From: a virus
Lineage: Duplodnaviria > Heunggongvirae > Uroviricota > Caudoviricetes
IMG/VR virus record: IMGVR_UViG_3300044846_005772
Direction: 5' to 3' (one strand)
Length of the DNA: 64,000 bases
Numbering within the stretch: position 1 is the first letter of the stretch; each line of letters begins with the position of its first letter. Position numbers and translations under genes: made by a program. Positions 47,591-64,000 of this stretch are shown in pieces. Below the pieces are notes generated by a model. It was not told the origin of the DNA. It saw only the letters and a program-made list of their open reading frames with translations, and made no database searches.

Positions 47591-47593
47591 ATA

Positions 47594-48072: not shown

Positions 48073-48137
48073 GGGGACCCATGCTACACCAGACCAGGCA
48101 GCAGACAGTACCCCGTGTCATGCAACCCTACCTCCGT

Positions 48138-49889: not shown

Positions 49890-49930
49890 TAGTTCTTCTA
49901 TTTGATAATATTTATCTGTTCTATCTAAAC

Positions 49931-49953
49931 AAAGAAAGGGCCCGAAGGCCCTT
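49931..49953 (-). terminator. rho-independent terminator
   Basis: gggcc-cgaa-ggccc with flanking A and T runs. Confidence 0.6.
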
Positions 49954-49970
49954 CCTCTGATTATGATAGG

Positions 49971-51146: not shown

Positions 51147-51219
51147 ATTTTATGATTGATTAGTTTAGTAAATATACTACATTACTATTTATTCTAAAAA
51201 TAAATGCACACCCTTTTTA

Positions 51220-52362
51220 TCAAAGGGTTGCACTCTCTTCCTGCACGGCGGGCTGCTCGTCCTGCTGGGAATCTCCCTCTTGCAGGTCCTCTCCCAACTT
51301 AAAGATCTCCTCGAAGCGGCGGCCCATGTCAACTCGACGAGTCATCTCACTGTTCTCAATCTCTCTCATCTCCTCGGTCTCGTTGAAGCGGTCCACATCG
51401 TACACAACCTGACCTTCTTGTAAGAAGTAGTATAGACGCTTGCCGACCGCACTGCCGCCTCGACGGTTCTTGGAGAACTCGACGTAGCGTTTGCCTGATA
51501 GATCGAATCGGATCTCCAACATCGCTGTGGTTGCGTGCTTGAGGTAGGTTGAGCCGACATATGTACCACCCTTCGTCATGTGTTGGATGGCAAAGACAGC
51601 TGAACCCTTGGTCTCGGCAGAATCGATCATCAAGCCTGTCAACCAAGACTCGGCTCGGGTAGAAGTCCAATGGTGTACTTCCTTGATCTTCACCAACACG
51701 TCCTGATAGGAGTCCAAGATGATGATGTCATAGTCGCCGTTAAACGCCTGTTCCATGATACCCGTTACCTGACCTGACTTCACATAGTCCATCAACAACA
51801 GTGTAGGAACCTTCGCGATGCTTGGCGTCTTCTTGTAATAGAATAAGATATCGTTGCGTGTCATCTCGCTGGAGATGTACAACACTCTAGCATCGGGCTG
51901 CTGTTCCTGAATGCTGGCGATCATGTCCAACATTACGGTTGACTTACCGACACCGGACTCACCGATAACGATATTCACGGTGCCGCCATATGTGCCGCCG
52001 CCTTCCTCATGATCGGAGAACAGGTCGTCGATCTTCTTGCCAGTTCGATAGAGCTTGAAGTTGGGAAACTCCATGTCCTCTACTGTTACTACATTGAGAG
52101 TCAAAGGTTCTTGTGGGACTACGGAGTGAATGACCCCTGGTGCAGCTGCTGGCTCGAGACGCTCCTGGCCGATATGACCTTCTGTGACAATCTTCTTCAA
52201 GACTCCATTAAAGGATGAGTAGCTGATGTCCGCATCGGGCATGTGAGATACGATCTGAGCATGCAGATCCAACACCTTGCCTCTTGGCACTAGTCCATTG
52301 TGTACGTCGTTGAACCATTGACGGATAACCTGTTCCTTTTTACCACCTGTGATTTGTATCAT
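51220..52362 (-). CDS. RecA-fold ATPase (DnaB-C-terminal / AAA_25-like)
   Basis: Walker A GESGVGKST and Walker B IIILDSYQD. Confidence 0.55.
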   Translation of the reverse strand: MIQITGGKKEQVIRQWFNDVHNGLVPRGKVLDLHAQIVSHMPDADISYSSFNGVLKKIVTEGHIGQERLEPAAAPGVIHSVVPQEPLTLNVVTVEDMEFPNFKLYRTGKKIDDLFSDHEEGGGTYGGTVNIVIGESGVGKSTVMLDMIASIQEQQPDARVLYISSEMTRNDILFYYKKTPSIAKVPTLLLMDYVKSGQVTGIMEQAFNGDYDIIILDSYQDVLVKIKEVHHWTSTRAESWLTGLMIDSAETKGSAVFAIQHMTKGGTYVGSTYLKHATTAMLEIRFDLSGKRYVEFSKNRRGGSAVGKRLYYFLQEGQVVYDVDRFNETEEMREIENSEMTRRVDMGRRFEEIFKLGEDLQEGDSQQDEQPAVQEESATL

Positions 52363-52420
52363 ATTCTTAGAGTTATTAAGTTATTGAGCTAATATACAAC
52401 GAAAAATTGGGAAAGTACAA

Positions 52421-52924
52421 CTATTTGGTGAGAAATTCCAAACGTTGTTTCTGTGCGGGCGAGAGCTTCTCGAAACTTCCAACCTCGTTCAGGATGTCTA
52501 GCAACTCGTCAAGGTCCAACTCGCAAGTCTCGTTCTCTACTACGGAGTGGCTGGCTTCGGGCTGCTCGCCCTTGCTCGCATCAGCTACTCTACCTCTGAG
52601 CTCGTCGACCGCATCGCAACCTCCTTTGAAGAAAGCATCGACCACGTTCTCGACAATATCTAAAGTTGCGAAGTTATATCCATTACGGGAGTTGGCATCG
52701 AATGCAACGACTGGCAAGATATCGTTATGTTCAGCAGCGACGTTACGGAATATCTCAGCACATTCTGACGGGCTGAATTCCGTTTCTACTAAGCTCAACA
52801 CTCCGCCTGGGAAAGGAAGGCCTACTGCCTTGTCGAGACTGCCTTGAGTGATTGTTGTCATCGCAACAACATCTCCACTTAGGGGAGTGTCTACCCCAAA
52901 TCTGAAAATTACTACTTTGTTCAT
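52421..52924 (-). CDS. hypothetical protein (167 aa)
   Basis: ORF. Confidence 0.5.
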   Translation of the reverse strand: MNKVVIFRFGVDTPLSGDVVAMTTITQGSLDKAVGLPFPGGVLSLVETEFSPSECAEIFRNVAAEHNDILPVVAFDANSRNGYNFATLDIVENVVDAFFKGGCDAVDELRGRVADASKGEQPEASHSVVENETCELDLDELLDILNEVGSFEKLSPAQKQRLEFLTK

Positions 52925-53013
52925 GTTATTATGTTTTAGAGTTATTAAGCTATATTACCACGAATAATCATAACTTCGACGAAAAGTTTCCGAAGTTATT
53001 AACAGTCAATTGT

Positions 53014-53220
53014 TCATAACTCCTCGACAGAAACGACCTCCTCAACGATTAGCGTCGGCCAGAAGATTCCACAAATTCTCTTTAAACCTTGACGCTCGTG
53101 CCAGAACTGGCTAGCTGCTCTTGCAGTTTGCGGGTCAAGTTGGGTTACTGCTGATTGGAATAGCTCATGCGCAACTCCGTTGGGCGAGCTTAAGCGTACT
53201 GTGATTTTGACTTGTTGCAT
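53014..53220 (-). CDS. small hypothetical protein (68 aa; start corrected)
   Basis: The ORF-track N-terminal extension translates the promoter module (YIYSIILNN). Start placed at the Met after it. Confidence 0.4.
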   Translation of the reverse strand: MQQVKITVRLSSPNGVAHELFQSAVTQLDPQTARAASQFWHERQGLKRICGIFWPTLIVEEVVSVEEL

Positions 53221-53333
53221 GTTGTTTAGAATTATAGAGTAAATATAACACGATAAAACGACAAAGTACAACGTTTCCGAAAATAAGTTTCCTGCACGGG
53301 CGGAGCCCCCATGCTCGGAATTCCTATCGTGCA
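53216..53333 (-). promoter_or_regulatory. repeated early-promoter module copy 1 (variant A) with CCTGCACGG/CGTGCAGG hairpin
   Basis: tagagtaaatataacacgataaaacgacaaagtacaacgtttccgaaaataagtttcctgcacgg ... cgtgcagg. Confidence 0.6.
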
Positions 53334-53563
53334 GGAGGTATGCCGATTGCCACGAACGTGCAACCATCCAGCGAATCCCTACCCACGAATAATAGATCGC
53401 AATTATACGCGTCATGGTGGCGCTTCTCCCAGCGAATCGTATCGCCGCTTGCGAAGGTAACTGGACACCCAGGTGGAGGTTGAGACCAGTCCCTCACAGC
53501 GACCTGATCGTACTTGCTCTCGCAAGAGATCAAGACCAAACATAGAATACTTATATACTTCAT
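53324..53563 (-). CDS. small lipoprotein (79 aa)
   Basis: MKYISILCLVLISC lipobox; the 3' end runs into the module hairpin. Confidence 0.45.
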   Translation of the reverse strand: MKYISILCLVLISCESKYDQVAVRDWSQPPPGCPVTFASGDTIRWEKRHHDAYNCDLLFVGRDSLDGCTFVAIGIPPAR

Positions 53564-53905
53564 TTAATAAGATTTTACTTTAAATATTGATGCCTTCACG
53601 TCGGTCATGCTGGCCTTATTGCCAAGGTCAACCTTATAAGATACTTTTATTTTTTCCAAGCATGCACGGTACGCACGGTTAGCTTCGGTGATTCCGCCTA
53701 AGAATAGAGCAAGCTCGTAAGCCTTTGCGAAAGTATCACAGACCATCGTGGTCTCACGCACGGCCAAACCCGGCTCCTTGTCCGGGCTGGGCTCTTGCGC
53801 GAATCCCATGACTATGTACTTATCCTTCTTTGCCATCGATTTTCTTTTCCATGTTAAATAGGACAGCACATCGCTCGTAGTTCTCCTTCTGCTCATAGTG
53901 TTCAC
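53564..53905 (-). CDS. hypothetical protein (start uncertain; may begin at internal MAKKDKY)
   Basis: ORF overlaps the upstream gene. Confidence 0.4.
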   Translation of the reverse strand: MNTMSRRRTTSDVLSYLTWKRKSMAKKDKYIVMGFAQEPSPDKEPGLAVRETTMVCDTFAKAYELALFLGGITEANRAYRACLEKIKVSYKVDLGNKASMTDVKASIFKVKSY

Positions 53906-54080
53906 GGACCTTGCGTAAAGCCTTGAGCTTGTTCTCGGAATCCTCGCTCTTCTCGCCTACCTTGTCTGGCCAGCTAGATATAGTAGAATACACAAGCTCC
54001 ATGAACTTGTCCTCGTCCTGAGCTCGCAGCTGCATCAAGCGCTGAATCAGGTCAGGATCCTTGAATGGGTCGAACTTCAT
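53820..54080 (-). CDS. hypothetical protein (86 aa)
   Basis: ORF; ATGA overlap with the upstream gene. Confidence 0.45.
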   Translation of the reverse strand: MKFDPFKDPDLIQRLMQLRAQDEDKFMELVYSTISSWPDKVGEKSEDSENKLKALRKVREHYEQKENYERCAVLFNMEKKIDGKEG

Positions 54081-54388
54081 ACTCGTACTGCGTTAATTGA
54101 ATCTATTGTTCTCTTCCATATGGCAGCAGCGGAATCCGTACCGAACTTCTCGTCCAATTCTACTGTCAAGCAGCGAACTCCTTGCTTGATATCTTGCATG
54201 ACGGCCGGCGATACTTTAGCATCGCAGACGTCGGTCACGATACCGCGCGCAATCAAGTCTGACATGTCCGAGAGCAAGTCATAATAGACTGCTGTTGCTT
54301 CAAATACTTCCACCAACTTGGTCGGTGAGTAACTAGCGATCACTTCCTTGGTGACGTCTAGTACATTATCTCCATCGTATACCTTCAT
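54077..54388 (-). CDS. hypothetical protein (103 aa)
   Basis: ORF in the sigma operon. Confidence 0.45.
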   Translation of the reverse strand: MKVYDGDNVLDVTKEVIASYSPTKLVEVFEATAVYYDLLSDMSDLIARGIVTDVCDAKVSPAVMQDIKQGVRCLTVELDEKFGTDSAAAIWKRTIDSINAVRV

Positions 54389-54402
54389 CTTACTTATATT
54401 AG

Positions 54403-55116
54403 TTATTTAGACATTACTTCCAATGCGCTCTTCGCGATCTGACAAACACGGATCTGAGTAAGACCGAATTCCTCAGCAACTTCAGCGCTGCTACGTGGCT
54501 CCTCATAGCCGATGCCGTACAGCATCTTCATGATAGCATGGTCACGATCCTTGAGGCGAGCTAATCGACGTTTCAACTCATGATCAACAAACTCGTCATT
54601 GATCACGTGATAGATATCGGGTTGACAGTTAGCATAACGTTCGCCGACCGTCGTCTCGCTGTCTTCTGAGATGGGCGCATCCAATTGTACAGGTCGGAAG
54701 TTGGGTGTTTCCAAACCCGCTTTCTTCTTCTTGTAAACATCGTATTCCTGATTCATGGGAATCCTAACGATTTTACCGACGGTCGCGACCGCCTCGTTAC
54801 AGTGCTTGCGAATCCATAGACTGGCATAGGTAGAAAATCGTGTATCTCTATCTGCGGTAAAACGTTCAGCTGCTGCGATCAGACCCAAGTTACCTTCTTG
54901 GATTAGGTCATCGATTGGAACGCCCTGACCGATAAATCGATTGGCGATCTTCACCACCAACTTTAGGTTATGACGAACTAATTCGTCCACCGCACGACGA
55001 TCGCCGGTCTGGATTCTAGCAGCTAGTGCATGCTCTTCTTCCTTGCTAAGAGGAGATAATCCCTTAATGGTCTTGAAATATTTTGGAAGACCTTCTGTTG
55101 ATTCGAATTTAGACAT
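54403..55116 (-). CDS. RNA polymerase sigma factor, sigma-70 family (regions 2, 3, 4)
   Basis: Region 2 DLIQEGNLGLIAAAERF...FSTYASLWIRK; region 4 SSAEVAEEFGLTQIRVCQIAKSALEVM. Confidence 0.8.
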   Translation of the reverse strand: MSKFESTEGLPKYFKTIKGLSPLSKEEEHALAARIQTGDRRAVDELVRHNLKLVVKIANRFIGQGVPIDDLIQEGNLGLIAAAERFTADRDTRFSTYASLWIRKHCNEAVATVGKIVRIPMNQEYDVYKKKKAGLETPNFRPVQLDAPISEDSETTVGERYANCQPDIYHVINDEFVDHELKRRLARLKDRDHAIMKMLYGIGYEEPRSSAEVAEEFGLTQIRVCQIAKSALEVMSK

Positions 55117-55228
55117 ATGTTTTTTTTGAGTTAGTTATAAAGCTAATGTAAACTGATAATTTTAAAAAGTACAACGTTTGCGAAACTATTTTTCCTGCAC
55201 GGTGGGGAGTACAAGTTAGCCGTGCAGG
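55117..55228 (-). promoter_or_regulatory. early-promoter module copy 2 (variant A) + hairpin
   Basis: aaaagtacaacgtttgcgaaa...tttcctgcacgg-17 nt-ccgtgcagg. Confidence 0.6.
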
Positions 55229-55233
55229 AATGA

Positions 55234-55413
55234 TTACATATGTTTCATAGCATTGTGCTTGGCTTCTAACACCTTAGCGTAATGTTCCCAGTTTACGTAA
55301 TTTACATCGTATCCTTCGTTAATCATCTTAGCACGACGGGTTTCCACCATCTTGGAAAAATTGATTCTTGTGCTTGCAGACAAGCGATCAAAGATATTCT
55401 TAAACATTTTCAT
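55234..55413 (-). CDS. small protein (59 aa), not in ORF track
   Basis: ATG directly after a module; translation MKMFKNIFDRLS...; stop placed by hand count. Confidence 0.35.
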   Translation of the reverse strand: MKMFKNIFDRLSASTRINFSKMVETRRAKMINEGYDVNYVNWEHYAKVLEAKHNAMKHM

Positions 55414-55494
55414 AGTTATTAGTTTAGAGTTAAGTAAATATAAAATGAAAAAATGGAAAAGTACAACGTTTCTTAAATTAAATTTCCTGCACGG
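55414..55494 (-). promoter_or_regulatory. early-promoter module copy 3 (variant A)
   Basis: tagagttaagtaaatataaaatgaaaaaatggaaaagtacaacgtttcttaaattaaatttcctgcacgg. Confidence 0.55.
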
Positions 55495-55650
55495 TCAAGC
55501 TTGGTCCTGCTCCTCGGCTGCGCTCGTGCGTGAGTTTAGGTTGCGAGACGTGCAGCGCCAGCAAGTAACAGCTGTTGCTTTATCATCTACTTTGTCTACC
55601 TTCTCCCCACAGATTTTACAGTTTAGGGATTTAAAGCTTTTGCTCTTCAT
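55495..55650 (-). CDS. small zinc-ribbon protein (51 aa), not in ORF track
   Basis: MKSKSFKSLNCKICGEK...CWRCTSRN (CxxC...CxxC). Confidence 0.35.
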   Translation of the reverse strand: MKSKSFKSLNCKICGEKVDKVDDKATAVTCWRCTSRNLNSRTSAAEEQDQA

Positions 55651-55675
55651 GGATTATTGATTATTTTTTATACAC

Positions 55676-55710
55676 AAAAAAGGGAGAAGATGTATTACAC
55701 CCTCTCCCTC
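55676..55710 (-). terminator. rho-independent terminator
   Basis: gggaga-15 nt loop-tctccc with an A-run on the + strand (T-run in gene sense). Confidence 0.55.
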
Positions 55711-55729
55711 AATCTGTTCCAAACTTGGA

Positions 55730-55951
55730 TTACGCAGTGATCTTGCGGCGACCTACCATTTTGTAAGCTGCGTTTACGATCTCGTTGCTTGGGTTGTTGC
55801 TCTCTCCTCTGAGAACGCGAGCCACATGCGACTTGTCATAGCCAGTTCTTACTGCTAATTCTGCGATGTCGCCACGACGTAGGCGAACTGATACTGCTGC
55901 TCTCTTCTCATTTACTGAAGTAGAGCTTTTCATTGTTGCTGTTTTCTTCAT
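55730..55951 (-). CDS. small putative DNA-binding (HTH-like) protein
   Basis: GDIAELAVRTGYDKSHVARVLRG helix-turn-helix-like segment. Confidence 0.4.
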   Translation of the reverse strand: MKKTATMKSSTSVNEKRAAVSVRLRRGDIAELAVRTGYDKSHVARVLRGESNNPSNEIVNAAYKMVGRRKITA

Positions 55952-56081
55952 AATACTTAAATAGTTAATGTATTATCTTATACTACAACAAGTTAAAAGG
56001 TTTTACTACGGAGTAGATAATTTTCTATTTTCCGGGCCAGGTAAAGAACATGTTTAACTATCAGTTTACTACGGAGTAACC

Positions 56082-56255
56082 TTAGTCTTCCTGGGAATAG
56101 CGATACTTCTTACGACTATACGCTCGTGGGTTGGGTTCGCTGCGCTGCCTGAACCTGCCGTCTAGGGCTCCTTGTTCCAGCATCTGCTGGCGCTGTGCTG
56201 TACGGGCAGCCGCTACTTGATTCCAACTTCCAGTTATTTTAATCTTGCGTTTCAT
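56082..56255 (-). CDS. small basic protein (57 aa), not in ORF track
   Basis: MKRKIKITGSW...; last gene of a three-gene operon. Confidence 0.3.
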   Translation of the reverse strand: MKRKIKITGSWNQVAAARTAQRQQMLEQGALDGRFRQRSEPNPRAYSRKKYRYSQED

Positions 56256-56266
56256 GATACACTTAT

Positions 56267-56491
56267 TTATTCTCCAGTTACTAGTATCTCGTCACCACCG
56301 ACTATGACAGTTGTACCTAGGATATCGTCGATAAAGAGAATCTCGCCTGATTCTGTCTCGAACAGGAAGTCATCGCTCCATTCAGCACCATCCATCTCTC
56401 TAAAAAGATTCGCGATTTCTTCCGGTTCGCCGTAGACCTGCTCGTGCCCCCAGTTATCTAGGGTTTCAGTTATCTTGATTATCTTGTGCAT
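56267..56491 (-). CDS. hypothetical acidic protein (74 aa)
   Basis: ORF. Confidence 0.45.
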   Translation of the reverse strand: MHKIIKITETLDNWGHEQVYGEPEEIANLFREMDGAEWSDDFLFETESGEILFIDDILGTTVIVGGDEILVTGE

Positions 56492-56492
56492 A

Positions 56493-56762
56493 TCAATTAG
56501 TTGTTTGGGTTACTACTAATATTAATGCCTCCTGACCCGAACTCAACGAGCGCCATGCTCCTTTTTCCAGGTCAAAGAATCTTACGCTCGCGTCGGTTGA
56601 TGTACCATTACCATTGGGTCGTAATGTTTCCGGAATCATGGAAAGATTCACGGTTCCCACCGCCGTGCGTAAAGTGCCATCCAACTTGCGGAAGGCAAAT
56701 GTTACTGCACCTTCTCTGAGTCTTGCTCTTAGTGCGTCCTTGCTGATTTCTTGAAATACCAT
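56493..56762 (-). CDS. hypothetical protein (89 aa)
   Basis: ORF directly downstream of a module. Confidence 0.45.
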   Translation of the reverse strand: MVFQEISKDALRARLREGAVTFAFRKLDGTLRTAVGTVNLSMIPETLRPNGNGTSTDASVRFFDLEKGAWRSLSSGQEALILVVTQTTN

Positions 56763-56924
56763 ACTTATATTGTTTAGAAGTTATAAGTAAATATAAACTG
56801 ATAATTTTAAAAAGTACAACGTTTTTGAAAATAAGTTTCCTGCACGGACTCCACCCGGCAAGCATGGGATCCCGGCCCGTGCAGGAGAGACCTCATGAAA
56901 AAAGGGACCGAAGTCCCTTTAGTC
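56763..56924 (-). promoter_or_regulatory. complete module copy 4: promoter (variant A) + CCTGCACGG-29 nt-CCGTGCAGG hairpin + GGGAC-CGAA-GTCCC terminator
   Basis: Read directly. Confidence 0.7.
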
Positions 56925-56943
56925 AAGTTATGTAAGATATACA

Positions 56944-57243
56944 TTATACTAACTCCTTCACCGATTCCAGATACTTCTCGATCTTCTTGAGATAGCTGAC
57001 AGCTGATCGCTTGTCCGGAAAGTATGCCCACATCTGACAGGATTCGGAATCCCAAGTAATGTTCTCCGGACTTCCGACCTTCTCCTTCAGGTGATCTTCA
57101 ACATCGTACGCGCTCCCATAGTCTCGGAAGCGGTATTCAGGTTTTGGCGAGCCAGTTAGTGACCAGCTCTTACCGTTGTTAGAGTAGCCGTCGTTGTAGA
57201 TAACGAATCCGGTCTTTGAAACGATTTCTTCTTGTTTTTTCAT
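56944..57243 (-). CDS. hypothetical protein (99 aa; start corrected to MKKQEE)
   Basis: The track extension translates the module. Confidence 0.45.
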   Translation of the reverse strand: MKKQEEIVSKTGFVIYNDGYSNNGKSWSLTGSPKPEYRFRDYGSAYDVEDHLKEKVGSPENITWDSESCQMWAYFPDKRSAVSYLKKIEKYLESVKELV

Positions 57244-57328
57244 GACTATATTATTTAGAGTTATAGTGTAAATATAACACGACTCTAGTAAATTGGTACT
57301 CACAAGTGAAACTATTCTTCCTGCACGG
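57244..57328 (-). promoter_or_regulatory. module copy 5 (variant B: gtaaattggtactcacaagtgaaactattcttcctgcacgg)
   Basis: Read directly; left hairpin arm only. Confidence 0.55.
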
Positions 57329-57348
57329 TCGCTCCCCGACAAGCTTCT

Positions 57349-57615
57349 TTACTCCTCCCCTTCAGGAAAGAGCTTAGCCCAGCCAGCTGGAGAAATGCCG
57401 GAGATCACGAACTCTCTATTCTCTGCGGGCTCGTTTCCCAAGCAAGTATAGATTCTTTCTCCTAGGCAGAATCTGCGCAGACCTTCGGTTGGCATCTCGC
57501 ATTCCCATTCCTTGCCAGTAATTACGCATTTACCCCAAACTCGTGAGTGAGTCTCATTGATTGGGGTGTAGAATCTCTCATCCACGAGAGATAGGGGATA
57601 ATCTTTATTTTCCAT
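57349..57615 (-). CDS. hypothetical protein (88 aa)
   Basis: ORF. Confidence 0.45.
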   Translation of the reverse strand: MENKDYPLSLVDERFYTPINETHSRVWGKCVITGKEWECEMPTEGLRRFCLGERIYTCLGNEPAENREFVISGISPAGWAKLFPEGEE

Positions 57616-57790
57616 GTTTAATTGTTTCTTTTGGTTGGCCTATTGTGTCGTCGTCAAATGCAGGTTCCAAAGTTGTTGGGTCTACCCATACTGAATCCTG
57701 CATGGAAGTTTCTCGTGAAATCCCGGGCTTGTCGAGGGGCACGCTCGTGCAGGAAGCAAGTATAATTGACAGTGTAATAATTCTAATCAT
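57605..57790 (-). CDS. small lipoprotein (61 aa)
   Basis: MIRIITLSIILASC lipobox. Confidence 0.4.
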   Translation of the reverse strand: MIRIITLSIILASCTSVPLDKPGISRETSMQDSVWVDPTTLEPAFDDDTIGQPKETIKHGK

Positions 57791-57824
57791 AAGATAATAA
57801 TACTAAATAATCAAGCTAATTAAA

Positions 57825-57849
57825 AGAAAAATGGGAACTAACGTTCCCA
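57825..57849 (-). terminator. rho-independent terminator
   Basis: tgggaac-taac-gttccca with A-run upstream on the + strand. Confidence 0.6.
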
Positions 57850-57889
57850 TCCTCTTAACTCTAAAACATATATAACTAATCAACAAACA

Positions 57890-58243
57890 TTAGTTCCAGG
57901 TAATCTCGGCTCGATTTGCCTTGATCTTGATCTCAGCTCCTTCCTTCAAGGTAACTGATCCGAATGGGGTGTTCATCGTCCATGCAGGAGCAGATGCAGT
58001 AGTTACTGATCTTTTGCGTGGGGCACGACTTACTTTTGTTGTCTCTTTATATTCTACAATCAAACCCGCTTTCTTCATCTTGCTGATGTGTGAATACACG
58101 GTTTGGCGAGAGACTTTTAGAAGGTCTGCGATTACAGGAGCTTTTACACCTGTTCCGACCATGATTGCGATTTGACGGCGAGCGTCTTCAACTTGAGCAC
58201 GAGTGCTGCGATTTCTTCTTGTTTGATTAGTAATTTTTTTCAT
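57890..58243 (-). CDS. HTH transcriptional regulator-like protein
   Basis: VIADLLKVSRQTVYSHISKMKKAGLI helix-turn-helix. Confidence 0.5.
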   Translation of the reverse strand: MKKITNQTRRNRSTRAQVEDARRQIAIMVGTGVKAPVIADLLKVSRQTVYSHISKMKKAGLIVEYKETTKVSRAPRKRSVTTASAPAWTMNTPFGSVTLKEGAEIKIKANRAEITWN

Positions 58244-58311
58244 GACTTTAAATTATGAATTAAATATACTATAGTTTCTCACCAGATTAAAATAAATTTA
58301 CTACGGAGTAG

Positions 58312-58845
58312 CTATATTTCATCCTCTTCTTCAAAAGCTTCGTCAAGATCGGCCTGCCCTGAAGCTGAATATCCTTCTTCCAAGATGTTGTATAATCTGT
58401 GGCACTCGTCGATTCTCCATTTCTCGGTGGCCGCTTGGATTCCGTCCAACAACTCGTCGGTCAGGTCCTCATGCTCCTCGCTATCGATGTTCATGCTACA
58501 CGTCATCTCGTGAGAGTATCGACTTGTGCTGCGCTCCGACGAGATAAGAAGATTCTCAAACAGGAGTTCCAACAACTTCTCCATCTCCTCATCCATCGGC
58601 AGGACCTTATGTAAATTGTATCTAGCTGTGAACTCTCGCGGATCTATCGACGAGCCTTCGCCCTTCCAATACTCGCTCTCAATTAAATACGTAAGAAATT
58701 GCTTGTTTACGACATCGCGTGCATCAAAGGTAAAGCTTGCGCCGTCACCTTGGCTCCAAAAGCCCGTGAACTGCACGTCGTCTACATCCACGCCTACCAT
58801 AAACATGGTTGCTTTAAAGTCAGTGATGTATTCATCGTACCACAT
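58312..58845 (-). CDS. acidic hypothetical protein (possible DNA-mimic/anti-restriction-like)
   Basis: Strongly acidic, DEAFEEEDEI C-terminus; no family assigned. Confidence 0.45.
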   Translation of the reverse strand: MWYDEYITDFKATMFMVGVDVDDVQFTGFWSQGDGASFTFDARDVVNKQFLTYLIESEYWKGEGSSIDPREFTARYNLHKVLPMDEEMEKLLELLFENLLISSERSTSRYSHEMTCSMNIDSEEHEDLTDELLDGIQAATEKWRIDECHRLYNILEEGYSASGQADLDEAFEEEDEI

Positions 58846-59006
58846 AGTTATATTGTTTAGAAGTTATGAGTAAATATAAAACGATAATCTTAAAAAGTAC
58901 AACGTTTCCGAAACTAAATTTCCTGCACGGCCGAGATCCCGGTTTTGGGGCGGCCGACCATGCAGGAGAGCTCACAAAGAAAAAGGGACGCAAGGCCCCT
59001 TCATCA
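58846..59006 (-). promoter_or_regulatory. module copy 6 (variant A) + hairpin (cctgcacgg/ccatgcagg) + imperfect GGGAC terminator
   Basis: Read directly. Confidence 0.65.
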
Positions 59007-59021
59007 GTAAAGCCAATTAGA

Positions 59022-59435
59022 CTATTCCTTCAACGCATCAATCACTCTCATTGGCATCTTAGAGGATCCATACGCAGCCGCAACCAACCACTCTCCTTCC
59101 TGTGTGAATAGGTAGCCGAACTCCTCAATATCTCCCTTAAAGAATTCTAGCACTGACTTGTGCGTTTGCTGGCTAAACTCCTCACCACGATCCCGGTGGT
59201 ACGCGACAGTAACGCCACCTTCTGGGTTAGAGAAGTTGTGAGGTCCACTAGGCTCTAGTCTCTCTTGCAGGGAACTTAGACTTCCCAACGCGATTAGGGC
59301 CTTCACCTTTTCAGGGGTGTTGTAATGGTCTATTAAAGTTTGACCATTGTGAGATGGGTAGCCATCCCAGTGACAGTAGATAGAAACGACGGTCTTGTCT
59401 TCCATCTCCATTGCGATTCTTGAGCGTGTTGCCAT
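59022..59435 (-). CDS. hypothetical protein (137 aa; start corrected to MATRSR)
   Basis: The track extension translates the module. Confidence 0.45.
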   Translation of the reverse strand: MATRSRIAMEMEDKTVVSIYCHWDGYPSHNGQTLIDHYNTPEKVKALIALGSLSSLQERLEPSGPHNFSNPEGGVTVAYHRDRGEEFSQQTHKSVLEFFKGDIEEFGYLFTQEGEWLVAAAYGSSKMPMRVIDALKE

Positions 59436-59596
59436 AGTTATTATTATTTTAGAATTATAGAGTAAATATAAAATGAAAAAATGGAAAAGTACAACGTTTG
59501 CGAAACTATTTTTCCTGCACGGGCACTTTCCCGGCCTAGCACGGATTACAGCCCGTACAGGAGTGCTCACAAGAAAAAAGGGACCAAAGTCCCTTT
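59436..59596 (-). promoter_or_regulatory. module copy 7 (variant A) + hairpin + GGGACC-AAA-GTCCC terminator
   Basis: Read directly. Confidence 0.65.
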
Positions 59597-59617
59597 TCAA
59601 TATATTACTATTAAGAA

Positions 59618-60289
59618 TTACAGAGCAAGTCTTCTATTAAGATCAGATCTTCTAATATAGATGTATGGGAAATCCCAGTTTGCACCATTCCATTCTGCTA
59701 CTTTGACAGTTCCACCATCCTTAGTTGGGCACTCATGAAGATCTATTTGATTGCTTCCAGGAGATCCTGACCAAACTTCATCTTGCCAAATTTCCTTACT
59801 GTTACAGCTTGACATCTTAGCATAGTATTCATTAAACTCCCAACCTTCATCATTAGCAAGATCAGGATGACCTACTATGATAGGATCATAATCATCATTC
59901 CAATCAATTAAGCAAACAATATCTTCTGGGCTTGCACCAAGAGTATCAGCAATAGCTCTGAAACCTGATTTAACTGATTCGATTTCATCATCTTCAGCAT
60001 CAGGTCCAAGGTTTTGAATAGCCTCTTCCTCATTTTCGATCAAGTTTTGAAGATCTAAAAAATCAGTATCAACTTGGATTGATTGTGGATTATCAATATC
60101 ATTAGCATCAACCTCAAATGTTCCATTCTTTGAACACCCAATTGTATACATAGCTTTTCCACTTTTAGAAAAATACACATTATCTATTCTACAGGTATCA
60201 CCATCAAAGAAATCAACATAATCACCTATTGAGAATTTGTGTGAGTTACTTTCATTTAAGAAGTTTTCAAATGTTTGTAAATGTTTCAT
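59618..60289 (-). CDS. hypothetical protein with N-terminal MKHLQTFENFLNE motif
   Basis: ORF. Confidence 0.5.
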   Translation of the reverse strand: MKHLQTFENFLNESNSHKFSIGDYVDFFDGDTCRIDNVYFSKSGKAMYTIGCSKNGTFEVDANDIDNPQSIQVDTDFLDLQNLIENEEEAIQNLGPDAEDDEIESVKSGFRAIADTLGASPEDIVCLIDWNDDYDPIIVGHPDLANDEGWEFNEYYAKMSSCNSKEIWQDEVWSGSPGSNQIDLHECPTKDGGTVKVAEWNGANWDFPYIYIRRSDLNRRLAL

Positions 60290-60472
60290 ACTTAATTTTT
60301 TAGTTATTTATTTTTTAGTTATAGAGTAAATATAATATGACTTCTGTAAATTGGTACTCACAAGTGAAACTATTCTTCCTGCACGGGCGGAGTAGTGCAG
60401 ATGTCAAGCAACTGAAACAATTGCGACCGTGCAGGAGAGACCTCATGAAAAAAGGGACTCATCGTCCCTTTT
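60290..60472 (-). promoter_or_regulatory. module copy 8 (variant B) + CCTGCACGG-40 nt-CCGTGCAGG hairpin + GGGAC-TCATC-GTCCC terminator
   Basis: Read directly. Confidence 0.7.
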
Positions 60473-60496
60473 CCATTACTACGGAGTAGCCCGTTT

Positions 60497-60895
60497 CTAC
60501 TCCTCGTTCTGGACAAACGCCTTATGTCCCCAGTGAGTGGCTCCTACGAAAGCATACTGGTGCTGATTGTACAGGTTGGTGTTGTACCATTTATCGTTGA
60601 TGTCTCCCACCGTGATTTGAGAGAGCAACTGCTCATCCGCAATCACAACCTTCTTGCCCTTCATCGCAAACACGGTTAACCAGAAATCAAAGCCGTCCTC
60701 GTCGGGCTGGAACTGAATCGTCTGGATCGTTCCTTTCTTATAGGCTCTGAATACATGGTACACATCTCGTTCCATGCAATCAACTGCCGTTAGAAAGCCT
60801 GCCTTGACCTTGATGATCGCTCTGAACTTGCCTGAGCGACCTTTGATTTGGTTGACCGCATTGATGTCGCGAATTAATACTTTTAAATTTTTCAT
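60497..60895 (-). CDS. hypothetical protein (132 aa; start corrected to MKNLKV)
   Basis: The track extension translates the module. Confidence 0.45.
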   Translation of the reverse strand: MKNLKVLIRDINAVNQIKGRSGKFRAIIKVKAGFLTAVDCMERDVYHVFRAYKKGTIQTIQFQPDEDGFDFWLTVFAMKGKKVVIADEQLLSQITVGDINDKWYNTNLYNQHQYAFVGATHWGHKAFVQNEE

Positions 60896-61054
60896 GTCTT
60901 TATTTTTTAGAGTTAAGTAAATATAACACGATAATCTTAAAAAGTACAACGTTTCCGAAATTAAATTTCCTGCACGGGCTCTCCCCGGCTAGCAGGCCAG
61001 CAAACACCGTGCAGGAGAGCTCACAAGAAAAAAGGGACCGGTTTGGTCCCTTTA
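60896..61054 (-). promoter_or_regulatory. module copy 9 (variant A) + hairpin + GGGACC-GGTTT-GGTCCC terminator
   Basis: Read directly. Confidence 0.7.
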
Positions 61055-61072
61055 CTGTTACTACGGAGTAAG

Positions 61073-61279
61073 CTAATCCTGCCCGTCCAAGAAGTCTAGG
61101 ATCTCTTCCACCTCTGCTGGATCGTCCACTTCGTACCCGTCCTTGGTTCTAACTTCCGTGTCAATGATCTTGTCGCGCTCATCATAGTAATCCTTTACGA
61201 CCACTACTGATCCTGAATCGAGCTGCACACGGCTTTCGACCATCTTAACCACCTGCGTTGTCTTGCTTAGTAATTCCAT
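61073..61279 (-). CDS. hypothetical acidic protein (68 aa)
   Basis: ORF. Confidence 0.4.
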   Translation of the reverse strand: MELLSKTTQVVKMVESRVQLDSGSVVVVKDYYDERDKIIDTEVRTKDGYEVDDPAEVEEILDFLDGQD

Positions 61280-61303
61280 GTTGATTAGTTTAATTGGTTA
61301 TTA

Positions 61304-61528
61304 TTATCTTTCAAGTATCACGAACGATCCAAATTCTCGATCAAACACCTTGATCAGGTTCTCGTAATCGGATGACATCATCTCGGCATTGATTTCTCCT
61401 CTCTTCTTTGGATCCCAGCCAAGTTGCTTGCCAAAGTCGTTTGCCATGCCGAGTAGCACGAACGCGTTTCCGTCGGGCCCAGTCAGGTCAATCACGATCT
61501 GCTTGTTCTCTTGCTTTTTTCTAATCAT
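61304..61528 (-). CDS. hypothetical protein (74 aa)
   Basis: ORF. Confidence 0.4.
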   Translation of the reverse strand: MIRKKQENKQIVIDLTGPDGNAFVLLGMANDFGKQLGWDPKKRGEINAEMMSSDYENLIKVFDREFGSFVILER

Positions 61529-61683
61529 ATCGCGTGCATGTTAGAGATTATTACTTCTGCCTCCTCAAGGCTTTTTACAGGGATGAGTTGGCCCGCACCC
61601 ACAACGTAATGTCCGTCCCATATGGTAAGGGTTCGTGGAGGCCCGCTTGTGTCGATGGTGATCCCATCAGAAAATCTTAGCAT
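61525..61683 (-). CDS. small hypothetical protein (52 aa; start corrected to MLRFSDG)
   Basis: The track extension translates the module. Confidence 0.35.
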   Translation of the reverse strand: MLRFSDGITIDTSGPPRTLTIWDGHYVVGAGQLIPVKSLEEAEVIISNMHAI

Positions 61684-61843
61684 AGTTATGTTGTTTAGAA
61701 TTATAGAGTAAATATAAACTGAAATAATTAAAAAGTACAACGTTTTTGAAATTAAATTTCGTGTACGGTCGTTCCAAGACAAGCTTGCCGGGAGACGCCG
61801 TGCAGGAGTACTCACCCTAAAAAAGGGACCAAAGTCCCTTTTT
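61684..61843 (-). promoter_or_regulatory. module copy 10 (variant A) + degenerate hairpin + GGGACC-AAA-GTCCC terminator
   Basis: Read directly. Confidence 0.65.
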
Positions 61844-61846
61844 CAA

Positions 61847-62269
61847 TTAGTCAATAGTTAGCATGAATGCGGTGCCGTCCCAATCGTCCGGTATTTCTAT
61901 CTCATCAAGCTCCTTCACAAACTTCTCTGCTGTCTTAATAAGTTGTTCACGGGTATTAACCTTAGATATATTAAAGAAAATTATCTTGTCATTGACTGAT
62001 GAATACAACTCAAGATCGGGACCAGTGTCTGCATCTCCATCTACCGTACGTGATACTTTACTTCCCTGTTCCGCGTCATTTGCGAACTTTAGGATTCTTT
62101 CTGCGACTCCACGCAACTTTGATAATGAATCGATTTCGCCAAGATCAATCTTCTTTGTGGATTTGCCTGCCGTAATCTCAAGATAGTCATGAGATATTTC
62201 ATTAACAAACTCATTTCCTCTGTGTCCTTCATTAATAAATTCTGAAAAATTCTTAATTTCCATTGTCAT
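61847..62269 (-). CDS. hypothetical protein with N-terminal KNFSEFINE motif
   Basis: ORF. Confidence 0.5.
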   Translation of the reverse strand: MTMEIKNFSEFINEGHRGNEFVNEISHDYLEITAGKSTKKIDLGEIDSLSKLRGVAERILKFANDAEQGSKVSRTVDGDADTGPDLELYSSVNDKIIFFNISKVNTREQLIKTAEKFVKELDEIEIPDDWDGTAFMLTID

Positions 62270-62353
62270 AGTTATTTGTTTTAGTTATAGAGTAAATATA
62301 AACTGAAATAATTAAAAAGTACAATGTTTCCGAAACTAAATTTCCTGTACCGC

Positions 62354-63025
62354 TTAGCCATGGTGCCACTCCGCGGAGAGCTCTTGCAGGAGAGTTCCGA
62401 AAGAATCGATGAATAATTCAAGGTCACCAACTGGTAGGGCTCTCACCGTATCCCGAGTGCTATGACATCGACTCCAATTGCTCAGGTCAGGAGAACCATC
62501 CTCATGCACCGGACATGGCTGGACTAGGCACGCGTTTAATCCCTTACGGCGAAGTACGACTGAGTCGTTGAATGGAACCTTTACCCTTGGGGCGGAGCTT
62601 AGTCTCTCAATCGCCTCGCCGATTTCCGAATCGCAATAGCCGACTAGCCAATGATCTCCTCCCTCACCGGCAAGTTCGAGGTTAATAATCCATTCTACAT
62701 CGGGTCCGCTCTGAGACCAGGACAGGGCGCCCAACCCACCCACTTCCTCGTGGTCAAAGATAACACAGCTGAGCCAGGGATTGCGGCGGACTAACTCCAA
62801 GCAGGCGATGCAGGCCGCCGAGTTATCGTTCGCGTTCTCGCTCTTTGGATTCACTATATCCCAGTGCGCGCTGATCCAGTACGGTCCATCACCGATCACA
62901 AGATTCAACGACCCGTCCTGGTCAAGGATTCTAGGTCTAAGACCCAAGCAACGCGCGGAGCGAACGATATGTTCTAGCCTGTTCTTGGATTTACATAAGC
63001 TGCGGAGTCTCTCTCTTATCTTCAT
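62354..63025 (-). CDS. hypothetical protein (223 aa); its 3' end overlaps a decayed module copy
   Basis: ORF. Confidence 0.45.
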   Translation of the reverse strand: MKIRERLRSLCKSKNRLEHIVRSARCLGLRPRILDQDGSLNLVIGDGPYWISAHWDIVNPKSENANDNSAACIACLELVRRNPWLSCVIFDHEEVGGLGALSWSQSGPDVEWIINLELAGEGGDHWLVGYCDSEIGEAIERLSSAPRVKVPFNDSVVLRRKGLNACLVQPCPVHEDGSPDLSNWSRCHSTRDTVRALPVGDLELFIDSFGTLLQELSAEWHHG

Positions 63026-63094
63026 AATTATTATTATACTAAATGGCCCTCCTAAATTTCAGAAGGGCCAATGTGATCACTACGGAGTGGACTC

Positions 63095-63283
63095 TTACTC
63101 CATTATGCTTATCCCGCAATTGATGAGATCGACCCTGAGGTCAGCATCACCTCTTAGTTTATCAATCCCATTTTGCGAGAAAATAACTGTTGGGCCCTGT
63201 AAGGAAATGACGTAATCTGTTTCGACGAATCCCGCTAAACGCAATAACGAAATCGCCTTTTCAATAATTTTCTTTTTGTTCAT
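63095..63283 (-). CDS. small hypothetical protein (62 aa; start corrected to MNKKKII)
   Basis: The track extension translates the module. Confidence 0.35.
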   Translation of the reverse strand: MNKKKIIEKAISLLRLAGFVETDYVISLQGPTVIFSQNGIDKLRGDADLRVDLINCGISIME

Positions 63284-63437
63284 AGTTAAAATTTTAGAGT
63301 TAAGTAAATATAAAAAGAAATAATTAAAAAGTACAACGTTTAGAAAAATAAGTTTCCTGAACGGTCGCTCCACGACAAGCATGCCAAGCGTGGCCGTGCA
63401 GGAGTACTCACAAAGAAAAAGGGACTCATGTCCCTTT
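63284..63437 (-). promoter_or_regulatory. module copy 12 (variant A) + hairpin + GGGAC-TCAT-GTCCC terminator
   Basis: Read directly. Confidence 0.7.
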
Positions 63438-63460
63438 AACCAACCAACTAACCCTTAACT

Positions 63461-63646
63461 CTAATCCCGAATCTCTTGATCCCGTAATCCATCCACTGCG
63501 TGACCAAGTGCGGCCAACTCCATCTCAATTCCCTCATTCATCTCAGGATCGTTCTCATCCTGAATGGATTCGAAGATTGCCTGTAATTCCCATCCTAACT
63601 CCTCGATCTTATCGAGGATTTCGTCCCATTTTTCTTGATTTGTCAT
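63461..63646 (-). CDS. small acidic protein (61 aa; start corrected to MTNQEKW)
   Basis: The track extension translates the module. Confidence 0.35.
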   Translation of the reverse strand: MTNQEKWDEILDKIEELGWELQAIFESIQDENDPEMNEGIEMELAALGHAVDGLRDQEIRD

Positions 63647-63776
63647 AGTTATATTGTTTAAAGTTATGATGTAAATATAAAAAGAAATAATTAAAAAGTA
63701 CAATGTTTTGAAAAATATTATTCCTGCATGGGGCCCGAGCTCTCATGTACACGAGTCTAGCTTTCGACCGTGCAGG
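63647..63776 (-). promoter_or_regulatory. module copy 13 (variant A) + hairpin, leftward
   Basis: Read directly. Confidence 0.65.
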
Positions 63777-63851
63777 AAATTTAGTTTCGTCGATGAGTAC
63801 CAATTTAAAGGAGTCGTATTATATTTACTCTATAATTCTAAAACAAATAAC
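63777..63851 (+). promoter_or_regulatory. mirrored module copy (variant B, reverse complement) driving the rightward gene
   Basis: aaatttagtttcgtcgatgagtaccaatttaaaggagtcgtattatatttactctataa is the reverse complement of variant B. Confidence 0.6.
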
Positions 63852-64000
63852 CATGACAAAGATTAGCGCTTTTATTGGAGACACACGCATGCCAGGCGGA
63901 TCCGCTGAGTCGATCAAGAGGGATTACGATTTGGACGTTCACATGTACGAGGATGGAACCTTCCAGGTTGAGGGAGCCAAGGAAGATGTTGATGCCTATT
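63852..64000 (+). CDS. hypothetical protein, 5' part (truncated by window end)
   Basis: ATG follows the mirrored module; open to the window end. Confidence 0.4.

Follow-up and report, generated by a model that had tools for sequence, protein, structure and literature searches.

The stretch analyzed here, referred to below as the window, is 64,000 nucleotides (nt) of a caudoviral genome (IMG/VR record IMGVR_UViG_3300044846_005772), and derives from an uncultured phage of freshwater. Genes for a T4-type portal, a DNA polymerase, NAMPT, and a sigma factor are present, and the right part of the window carries a minus-strand gene array, the products of which are mostly 50–220 amino acids (aa) long and have no Pfam hits. 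Many of these genes are preceded by a repeated intergenic module that combines a terminator, a split palindrome, and a promoter, which is the subject of this study. The module is a real and highly non-random repeat. Fourteen promoter-type copies (13 on the minus strand and one on the plus strand) are packed in 10.6 kb, and 17 split palindromes were found, all within 48.3–63.8 kb of the window (Table 1). Thirteen of the palindromes are linked to a promoter, one of them serving two divergent promoters, which accounts for the 14 promoters. The total of 17 comprises 13 matches to a search pattern and four added copies with a degenerate arm.

A sequence-only reading of the window had reported this repeat. 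It was found at the coordinates claimed, and all motif counts were far over the expectation from shuffled sequences: 33 matches to CCTGCACGG with up to one mismatch (3.5 expected), 11 to AACGTTGTACTTTT with up to two mismatches (0.67 expected), 13 to the palindrome core CCTGYA-N20-48-TRCAGG (0.19 expected), all at 48346–63776, and 10 to the terminator pattern AAGGGAC-N3-8-GTCCCTTTT (0 expected). The exact sequence TTATATTTAC occurs 12 times on the minus strand (53248–63680) and once on the plus strand (63819), and the sigma gene has the variant TTACATTAGC. The claim that a module stands in front of almost every gene went too far, as only 13 of the 26 minus-strand genes within 53014–63646 are preceded by one. 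The genes without a module are co-transcribed or served by other promoters.

Anatomy of the module

Read in gene sense, a full module of about 130 bases is composed of the terminator (GGGAC-loop-GTCCC and T6), a 12-nt linker (cttGTGAGctCT), the left (L) arm CCTGCACGG of the palindrome, a spacer or loop, and the right (R) arm CCGTGCAGG, followed by AAATTTAATTTC, GGAAACGTTGTAC, about 15 nt, the -7 box TTATATTTAC, CTCTATAAYT, and, about 15 nt further, the ATG. An optional T before the L arm and an optional A after the R arm extend the palindrome to (T)CCTGCACGG / CCGTGCAGG(A). Mean pairwise identities among the 13 minus-strand copies were 0.84 in the L arm, 0.27–0.33 in the loop, 0.90 in the R arm, 0.77 in the A/T tract after the R arm, which resembles an UP element, 0.68 in the -33 region, and 0.95 in the -7 box. 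The two variants that had been distinguished, A and B, were both recovered as claimed, with B at 57268–57366, at 60326–60470, and, on the plus strand, at 63768–63828.

The terminator is an optional part of the module. The description of three parts in each copy was not borne out, since the terminator is found in only 7 of the 13 minus-strand modules (at 56900, 58982, 59576, 60450, 61030, 61821, and 63417). Wherever it is present, it is the canonical intrinsic terminator that had been proposed, with a 5–9-bp stem containing GGGAC/GTCCC, a 3–6-nt loop, and T5–T6. At the six places where it is missing (63776, 62390, 57366, 55532, 55228, and 53335), the upstream open reading frame (ORF) extends into or through the palindrome. 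Among the supposedly decayed copies, two kinds were distinguished. Palindromes do occur at 51147–51219, 49100–49283, and 48346–48402, off the 42-nt position described below, but at 52363–52440 and 52925–53013 a second promoter class without a palindrome was found.

The gene array switches direction at about 63750, and the genes past the window end lie on the plus strand (63853–64000, continuing in L041 and L045, where L and a number denote a related contig compared with the window). These plus-strand genes carry the same modules, and thus the window holds one arm of a divergent early region only. One module in L045, CCTGTAACA-29-CCTTACAGG, has an arm pair with two compensated positions.

Table 1. 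Modules, palindromes, associated genes, and ACTCCGTAGT copies in the window (loop lengths in nt).
Feature	Position	Strand	Details
Divergent double module	63671–63828	both	single palindrome 63723–63776, loop 36, promoter on either side
Double module, leftward variant A	-7 box 63680–63671, ATG 63646	-	arm exactly 42 nt from own TTATATTTAC
Double module, rightward variant B	-7 box 63819–63828, ATG 63853	+	arm exactly 42 nt from own TTATATTTAC
Module A	63304–63436	-	terminator 63417–63436; palindrome 63356–63402, loop 29, R arm CCGTTCAGG; -7 box 63313–63304
Module A, no terminator	62292–62390	-	palindrome 62344–62390 (CCTGCAAGA-29-CGGTACAGG), in 3' end of M28-peptidase-like ORF; -7 box 62301–62292
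Module A	61708–61840	-	terminator 61821–61840; palindrome 61760–61806, loop 29, R arm CCGTACACG; -7 box 61717–61708
Module A	60917–61052	-	terminator 61030–61052; palindrome 60969–61015, loop 29; -7 box 60926–60917
Module B	60326–60470	-	terminator 60450–60470; palindrome 60378–60435, loop 40; -7 box 60335–60326
Module A	59462–59595	-	terminator 59576–59595; palindrome 59514–59561, loop 30, L arm CCTGTACGG; -7 box 59471–59462
Module A	58870–59002	-	terminator 58982–59002; palindrome 58922–58966, loop 27; -7 box 58879–58870; cassette-difference site
Module B, no terminator	57268–57366	-	degenerate L arm CCTGAAGGG in upstream ORF; 29-nt loop contains stop codon; R arm 57320–57328; -7 box 57277–57268
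Module A	56787–56919	-	terminator 56900–56919; palindrome 56839–56885, loop 29; -7 box 56796–56787
Module A, no terminator	55434–55532	-	degenerate L arm CACGCACGA; L arm and 29-nt loop inside upstream 51-aa ORF; R arm 55486–55494; -7 box 55443–55434
Module before sigma-factor gene	55142–55228	-	palindrome 55194–55228, loop 17; variant -7 box TTACATTAGC at 55151–55142
Module A, no terminator	53239–53335	-	palindrome 53291–53335, loop 27, L arm in end of upstream ORF; -7 box 53248–53239; cassette-difference site
Palindrome, no promoter at 42 nt	57697–57753		CCTGCACGA-39-CCATGCAGG, inside 61-aa lipoprotein-like ORF
Palindrome	51240–51286		CCTGCAAGA-29-CCGTGCAGG, in C-terminal tail of DnaB-like gene
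Palindrome	49132–49166		loop 17; just downstream of recombinase-like gene; ACTCCGTAGT copies around
Palindrome	48346–48402		loop 39; ends 11 nt before ATG of recombinase-like gene; ACTCCGTAGT copy abuts one arm
Sigma-70-family factor	54403–55116	-	regions 1.2, 2, and 4
IS607-family-like serine-recombinase homologue	48414–49100	+	N-terminal excisionase-type helix-turn-helix, then catalytic domain
117-aa winged-helix-turn-helix protein	57890–58243	-	second candidate binder; own promoter without palindrome
ACTCCGTAGT copies, examples, part 1	63079–63088, 61060–61069, 60478–60487, 58300–58309, 56068–56077, 56005–56014	-	
ACTCCGTAGT copies, examples, part 2	49265–49274, 49171–49180, 49107–49116, 48384–48393, 48248–48257	-	

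Geometry of the split palindrome

In each of the 14 promoters of the window, exactly 42 nt separate the promoter-proximal R arm from the TTATATTTAC box, and this distance holds though variants A and B differ at about half of the intervening positions. It is also kept in L030, a relative with a sigma factor 71% identical to that of the window. The loop length had been called free; in a set of 36 distinct modules, taken from the window and from contigs related to it, it has a mode of 29 nt (19 modules) within a range of 17–40 nt, and 27 modules fall at 27–30 nt, with outliers of 17, 36, 37, and 40 nt. Three copies seemingly lacking the L arm have a degenerate one, which matches at 6–7 of 9 positions and lies within the upstream ORF at exactly 29 nt.

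The palindrome belongs with the promoter or stands alone. It is present in all six terminator-less modules, and its occurrence without a terminator, even inside ORFs, led us to group it with the promoter rather than with the terminator. The copy in the tail of the DnaB-like gene lies 62 nt ahead of the next -7 box (GTATATTTAC at 51177). At the same place in L030, the arm spacing is 28 nt (29 nt in the window) and the distance to the box is an identical 62 nt, with the L arm in another reading frame and an unrelated peptide encoded between the arms. The fact that this palindrome is kept despite the changed frame and peptide argues for selection on the DNA sequence and not on the protein.

Lack of support for a folded element

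The palindrome had been described as a hairpin with conserved arms and variable loops containing sub-palindromes. The arms are indeed conserved relative to the loops (0.84–0.90 versus 0.27–0.33), also at orthologous sites in relatives with sigma factors of 71–85% identity. The structural reading is not supported, as there was neither covariation nor an excess of structure in the loops, and the arm changes are mostly uncompensated. When 32 distinct arm pairs were aligned, each arm being extended by four bases at both ends, the covariation score was 0.089 (0.091 after shuffling) and 67.1% of the cells were paired (67.3% after shuffling), although the near invariance of the arms leaves this test little power for the outer seven pairs. 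These outer pairs (TCCTG.A / T.CAGGA) were 97–100% paired and essentially invariant. The inner three pairs were paired in only 60–78% of the sequences, and the common L-arm form CCTGTAAnA removes the inner third of the stem. Double changes were few (L5/R5 to T-A in three modules and L7/R3 to A-T in one); uncompensated changes were commoner, some of them giving mismatches and not wobbles on the sense strand. The self-complementarity of the loops was no more than that of shuffled loops (mean z of -0.09 for the loop and -0.2 for the whole element). The spacers are 60% G+C in an A/T-rich intergenic context, and a cruciform with a 29-nt G+C-rich centre is unlikely. No Rfam family was matched at a permissive threshold by the palindrome or by ACTCCGTAGT, a separate repeat described below. 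A CRISPR-like reading was rejected because the arms are inverted, not direct, and the spacer length varies.

Promoter type, sigma factor, and host

The conserved stretch of 70 nt, which always ends 20–25 nt before the ATG, appears from its motifs to be a Bacteroidota-type promoter. A promoter, as proposed earlier, remains the best reading of this stretch, with the reservation that the -7 match is incomplete: TATATTTA agrees with TAnnTTTG, named as a Bacteroidetes-specific motif (PMC10309648), at five of the six defined positions in 13 copies, with A replacing the final G. Variant A contains GTTGTAC, the TTG of which is 21 nt before TATATTTA; in variant B, a TTG is 26 nt before it and GTAC is at the same place. 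The relative L032 has TTTG 18 nt before the -7 box. The optimal -33/-7 spacing in Flavobacterium is about 19 nt. The modules could be read by the sigma-70-family factor encoded in the window or by the sigma-A of the host.

A scan of the window with the sigma-70 consensus showed no enrichment (32 sites versus 25.6 expected) and did not pick up the modules as a class. Reading the promoter as a sigma-70 type TTGTAC-N18-TATATT was rejected, as the -35 hexamer matches at only three of six positions and the arrangement fails in relatives such as L032 (box TACTTTTA). A Shine-Dalgarno-like 4-mer was found in 1 of 50 genes, and the leaders are A-rich and about 25 nt long; near-absence of Shine-Dalgarno sequences and A-rich leaders are typical of Bacteroidota. 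The best isolate matches of the T4-type portal are Prevotella Lak phages. These features, together with the unenriched sigma-70 scan, make it very likely that the host is a member of Bacteroidota. A palindrome scan of a genome collection found no host and no prophage, giving mostly single chance matches in G+C-rich genomes. A metagenome-assembled genome binned as Lachnospiraceae (L083, L096, L110, L111, and L117; CAMWSA01...) carries its own multi-copy palindrome with the same arms, TTCCTGCACGG ... CCGTGCAGGAA; its loops are 23–28 nt long and self-complementary, which makes the element similar to repetitive extragenic palindromic (REP) sequences, and no phage promoter parts are nearby. This genome is unrelated, and the likeness is probably due to convergence.

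The second promoter class has a -7 box of TA(T/C)ATTAGC or TAATATAGC instead of TATATTTAC and occurs at 52363–52440 and 52925–53013 (boxes TATATTAGC / TAATATAGC, no palindrome) and at 55142–55151. In its form TA(T/C)ATTAG, the final G is present but position 7 is A. This class precedes the sigma gene and the first replication-module genes, with a palindrome at the sigma gene only, and the same class was found in L030 ahead of its replication genes. Two early helix-turn-helix (HTH) genes (117 and 73 aa) have another promoter type at 58244–58311 and 55952–56081, with ACTCCGTAGTAAA upstream and no palindrome.

Turnover of gene cassettes

Whole genes set the window apart from contigs that are 98% identical to it. 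Three events were recorded, and crossovers were localized to 29 and 16 nt of shared module sequence. At window position 53222, the contigs L015, L017, L018, L020, and L022 contain an additional 79-aa gene, which comes with a terminator, a palindrome, and a promoter of its own. At this junction, the window corresponds to the upstream module of L015 up to GTTATATTTACTCTATAATTCTAAACAA (29 nt shared) and to the downstream module after it. L015 has an extra 87-aa gene at 58930, where the crossover falls within CAGGAAATTTAGTTTC (16 shared nt). In L044, the same upstream palindrome is joined to a third promoter. A further site, 56885, differs only in its palindrome, which in L015, L017, and L039 gives way to CCTGTAAGA and an unrelated 37-nt loop, the flanks being unchanged; such a swap would result if an ancestor with three genes had undergone two alternative deletions. 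The spacer of the palindrome at 60969–61015 is inverted at the start of L015, beside a different gene, with the breakpoint at an arm.

Every mapped crossover lies inside sequence shared by both parental modules, so that general homologous recombination is enough to explain them. The suggestion of a MITE-like (miniature inverted-repeat transposable element) boundary of gene cassettes was therefore half right: the modules are cassette boundaries, with the breakpoints inside them, but the crossovers in ordinary shared stretches do not speak for MITE-like transposition. Among the three options that the sequence-only reading had offered (a factor-binding cruciform or activating site, a cassette boundary, and a second termination or processing hairpin), the cassette boundary is the only one with direct evidence. 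Recombination seems to be a consequence of the repetition that is exploited by the phage population.

Modules in related phages

An identical sigma protein was found on 12 metagenome contigs, several of them from JGI (IMG) metagenomes, the longest recorded being 82.7 kb. A pattern scan of metagenomes added eight short contigs, all of the same population, a pattern scan of viral contigs in IMG/VR gave single chance matches only, and a near-identity search with 14 kb against 50,697 phage records gave no match and thus no close isolate phage. Sigma homologues at 45–85% identity delineate a large phage family, and contigs from five further lineages were read. All lineages examined are similar in gene order and retain an A-rich leader and the -7 box (TTATATTTAC, TTACTTTTAC, or TTACATTTAC); the box persists down to 52% sigma identity, and the parts upstream of it differ.

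In L030 and L051–L053 (sigma identity 71–85%), the CCTGYA..TRCAGG palindrome is kept. In the orthologous modules before the sigma gene, read in L030, L051, and L052, the arms differ at 1–5 of 18 positions, and the spacer is wholly changed in L030 and L051. L052 and L053 show the layout palindrome, terminator, palindrome, promoter, and L053 has a palindrome also in the N-terminal part of a lipoprotein ORF. The more distant L032, L035, and L058 (sigma identity 52–56%) have a different -33 region (CCCCGATTTTT or CAAACATTTTTTAC), and most of their promoters come directly after the preceding stop codon. Their terminators are followed by a G+C-rich segment with a different palindrome, TCTCTG..CAGAGA, the arms of which are 1–31 nt apart, and GTCTCTGG often stands directly before the A/T tract, in the position of CCGTGCAGG in the window. 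A different palindrome at the homologous place suggests that the arm sequence is younger than the position and the inverted-repeat design. Such arm turnover at a fixed place would be expected of a DNA-binding protein co-evolving with its site, and a hairpin would fit too.

Candidate binding proteins and the ACTCCGTAGT repeat

The recombinase-like gene at 48414–49100 lies between two palindromes (48346–48402 and 49132–49166), and its homologue occupies the same genome position in every lineage examined. The best family match of the product was the IS607 transposase NF033518 (E = 8e-23, residues 5–177; 80.9 bits, under the curated cut-off of 110), with the excisionase HTH at residues 5–36, and the matches in the PDB were MJ0014 and the ISC1904 and ISC1926 TnpA proteins. 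Reading of the profile alignment showed that the catalytic serine of the Y-x-R-V-S motif (YARVS in the solved structures) is replaced by G in the window (YCRAGG), by A in L035 and L054 (YCRVAG) and in L058 (YSRVAG), and by V in L032 (YTRVVG), with the downstream arginines retained. An active site-specific recombinase was rejected on account of the missing serine; the protein has very probably ceased to be a recombinase and looks like a transposase that was domesticated and lost its activity. Unrelated viral contigs (L056) encode a genuine IS607-type protein that has the serine. Dimers of IS607 TnpA bind to several short repeats, the spacing of which is variable (PMC6188088). The HTH of the homologue differs between the window lineage and the three lineages sharing the TCTCTG palindrome, and these traits make the protein a candidate binder of the palindrome. 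The 117-aa winged-HTH protein is an equally putative candidate.

The sequence ACTCCGTAGT has 14 exact copies in the window at 46164–63088, all on the gene-sense (minus) strand (1.9 expected). It usually follows a stop codon by 2–12 nt and precedes either a terminator or the next promoter, and five copies cluster around the recombinase-like gene. Five lineages contain 51 distinct copies, all on the sense strand, which indicates that ACTCCGTAGT is more conserved than the palindrome arms or the -33 region. The complementarity of its flanks beyond ACT/AGT was about that expected by chance, and so was their hairpin potential at the fourth pair. A conserved factor that binds DNA or RNA, such as the WYL_2/Sm-like protein or the recombinase homologue, may recognize ACTCCGTAGT. 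Two copies stand 63 nt apart with nothing coding between them (56005–56077), and the doublet recurs with a different filling in L030 and L051.

Interpretation and alternative explanations

We propose, with a probability of roughly 55%, that the modules are self-contained early-gene expression cassettes with a Bacteroidota-type promoter, and that the palindrome is a protein-binding element at the DNA level. The terminator would close the upstream gene, and the promoter block would drive a small early gene. The palindrome, at about -55 to -100, would act on double-stranded DNA as a lineage-specific protein-binding site, serving as an operator, an activating site, or an insulator, and would place the whole early gene set under one factor, for which the IS607-like homologue without the nucleophilic serine may be the most attractive candidate. 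With at least 14 directly ordered repeats of the module available, whole genes are deleted, inserted, and swapped among close strains through homologous recombination between the copies.

Several points weigh against this proposal. Four of the 17 palindromes are off the 42-nt position; one of these is inside an ORF, in its 5' part, and no promoter is evident there. The arm spacing (17, 27–30, and 36–40 nt) is more variable than would be compatible with a rigid dimer bound to B-DNA. In the L035 and L058 lineages, the majority of promoters of this type do without any G+C-rich element; where the element occurs, it accompanies terminators and its distance varies (21–58 nt), and hence it is not a general promoter requirement. 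The link between the recombinase HTH and the arm sequence is a single evolutionary contrast. The -7 box has no final G of TAnnTTTG, and the TTG is 21 nt upstream. Finally, general homologous recombination suffices for the crossovers, which may be a by-product rather than a function of the modules.

An RNA hairpin read through from the upstream gene, with a 9-bp G+C stem serving in 3'-end protection, as a processing site, or in backup termination, would naturally tolerate loops of 17–40 nt. The element is always at or just past a gene 3' end and is surely transcribed with the upstream ORF in the six terminator-less modules, the predicted stems have energies of -10 to -33 kcal/mol, and the L5/R5 pair (C-G 17, U-G 6, and U-A 3) offers a possible wobble path. 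We nevertheless regard such a hairpin as unlikely: the covariation score equals that of shuffles (0.089 versus 0.091), the arm changes that make mismatches (unpartnered R5 G>A, R3 G>A, L9 G>A, and R8 G>C) are at least as many as those that preserve wobbles, the frequent L-arm form CCTGTAAnA loses three inner pairs, and no Rfam family matches. Behind the canonical terminator of seven modules, moreover, it would rarely be transcribed, and it would account neither for the invariant 42-nt distance to the promoter nor for the sharing by divergent promoters. The second termination or processing hairpin of the earlier options is unlikely as well, as a good terminator precedes in seven modules and the fixed distance is to the promoter, not to the terminator. 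The palindrome could also be a functionless relic of a module spread by duplication from an ancestral divergent promoter pair, with gene conversion keeping the arms alike and the loop drifting. The divergent copy at 63723–63776 shows how an inverted promoter-proximal pair can arise, recombination between copies is demonstrably frequent, and other lineages use the same promoters without the palindrome. Gene conversion would homogenize the loop too, but the loops are at the random level (0.27–0.33) between arms at 0.84–0.90, and they hold a 29-nt mode and 60% G+C in A/T-rich surroundings. This origin is made improbable also by the helicase-tail copy, conserved across lineages at the nucleotide level in a different reading frame, and by the L arm, which is kept even where it is forced inside an upstream ORF.

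We consider it quite improbable that the palindrome is the end of a mobile unit or a recombination site, at which a dedicated enzyme moves or inverts cassettes in the manner of integron attC sites, REP sequences with their REP-associated tyrosine transposases (RAYTs), or MITEs. The only recombinase homologue seen lacks the catalytic serine in all four lineages, and neither an integron integrase or other tyrosine recombinase nor a RAYT or a transposase was found among the window ORFs examined, a part of all its ORFs. The conserved arms, the variable centre, and the position between cassettes would suit such a site. Two independent junctions that fall at the R arm (in L015-2733 and L044, both arms and the loop are those of the window and are followed by different promoters) and the loop of 60969–61015, inverted in L015 with its breakpoint at an arm, also point this way, but other junctions are elsewhere in the module (the -7 box and the leader) and always within shared sequence. 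Palindromes flank the recombinase-like gene and occur inside ORFs, and Rickettsia palindromic elements likewise occur inside ORFs. No target-site duplications were seen, and the arms are unlike attC R boxes (GTTRRRY).

An extension of the protein-binding proposal, which we put forward as a speculation and rate as rather unlikely in its full form, is that of a transposase turned regulator. The serine-less IS607-type homologue would bind lineage-specific split palindromes (CCTGCA..TGCAGG and TCTCTG..CAGAGA) and insulate or switch early ORFan cassettes, and the sites would double as a substrate for integron-like cassette turnover. ACTCCGTAGT could be a second site class of this system.

Comparison with known systems

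Promoter-early stem-loop (PeSL) cassettes of T4-type phages are composite promoter-terminator motifs in the hyperplastic regions of RB49/phi1, T4/PST, and KVP40/nt-1; their promoter and terminator activity and mini-circles have been shown experimentally, and it has been proposed that ORFans can thereby travel together with the signals for their expression (Arbiol, Comeau & Krisch 2010, PMC2839356; Comeau et al. 2014, PMC4122927). The modules resemble them in being a conserved composite of about 100 nt, made up of a stem-loop terminator, an upstream tract rich in A/T, a strong early promoter (a predicted one here), and a start of translation, and in occurring in many copies between small ORFan genes of a plastic region. 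Close relatives differ by insertion, deletion, or replacement of motif-flanked genes, with the crossovers inside the motif, and this phage has a T4-type portal. The differences are that PeSLs, which belong to T4-like myoviruses of Gram-negative hosts, have sigma-70 -35/-10 promoters and a Shine-Dalgarno sequence, whereas a promoter of the Bacteroidota -33/-7 type without a Shine-Dalgarno sequence is predicted here; that the terminator is upstream of the promoter here and overlaps with it in PeSLs; and that a 9-bp inverted repeat, with arms about 29 nt apart and at a fixed 42 nt from the -7 box, is present here (also alone and in ORFs) and absent from PeSLs. PeSL activity was shown by experiment, and that of the present modules is predicted from sequence. 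We presume that the modules work like PeSLs and yet would not be strict members, since they depart from PeSLs in promoter type, in translation signals, and in having the extra palindrome.

Halovirus HF2 also has conserved intergenic repeats acting as promoters before many genes, but it is an archaeal virus with archaeal promoters and 29- and 58-bp repeats, and the abstract reports no terminator or split palindrome (PMC8707807). The subterminal repeats of IS607 TnpA are similar in that a serine-recombinase-family protein is associated with several short direct and inverted repeats at variable spacing (PMC6188088). A family member sits between two palindromes here, but the phage protein has no nucleophilic serine, so that recombination is not expected, and the repeats extend over 15 kb before unrelated genes. 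The Tn3/gamma-delta resolvase also represses promoters overlapping res. Integron attC sites share the imperfect inverted repeats with conserved ends and a variable centre at the 3' end of arrayed cassettes. The arms CCTGCACGG / CCGTGCAGG, however, have no R''/R' core sites (RYYYAAC / GTTRRRY), the cassettes here are not promoterless, and the junctions look homologous and not site-specific. High-copy short palindromes after stop codons with a conserved stem sequence are also characteristic of REPs and bacterial interspersed mosaic elements. Short loops, a 5' GTAG-type tetranucleotide, and accompanying RAYT transposases are typical of REPs but were not found here, and REPs are not at a fixed distance from a promoter. 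In the literature on Flavobacterium or Cellulophaga phages, no comparable elements were found.

The architecture is a recognizable variant of a described principle in, very probably, a new host phylum. The PeSL idea, that modules express ORFans and let phages trade them safely, is extended beyond T4-type phages infecting Proteobacteria to an uncultured freshwater lineage that apparently uses Bacteroidota-type promoters. Direct population evidence is provided by the presence or absence of cassettes between 98%-identical genomes with crossovers inside the module. The at least 14 natural promoter variants could help to define strong promoters and upstream elements in Bacteroidota, a phylum in which little is established about promoter rules. 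The split palindrome, an additional part with a possible link to a dead transposase, clearly bears the marks of selection at the nucleotide level.

Other features beside the array

Iteron-like repeats lie beside the recombinase homologue: GTGCACCAGCT is present three times at 48018–48075, and an 11-nt tandem repeat, CCATGTCACCA, 5–6 times at 48128–48204. L032, L035, and L058 have analogous GCCTGGTC.. repeats at the same place. The repeats at 48018–48204 may be a replication origin or a packaging site. Inside the phage tRNA cluster, a match to the freshwater-1 RNA (RF02979) was found at 46526–46587 on the minus strand, with 72.1 bits (gathering score of 72) and E = 3e-15. Three over-long tRNA-like genes on the same strand, at 46693–46829, 46984–47085, and 47162–47273 (137, 102, and 112 nt), match the Rfam tRNA model from end to end and are not called by ARAGORN. 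They may carry introns or insertions, and they share their 3' half (AGTCAGGACAGGATTCGAACCTG) with the called tRNA-Arg at 47503–47590.

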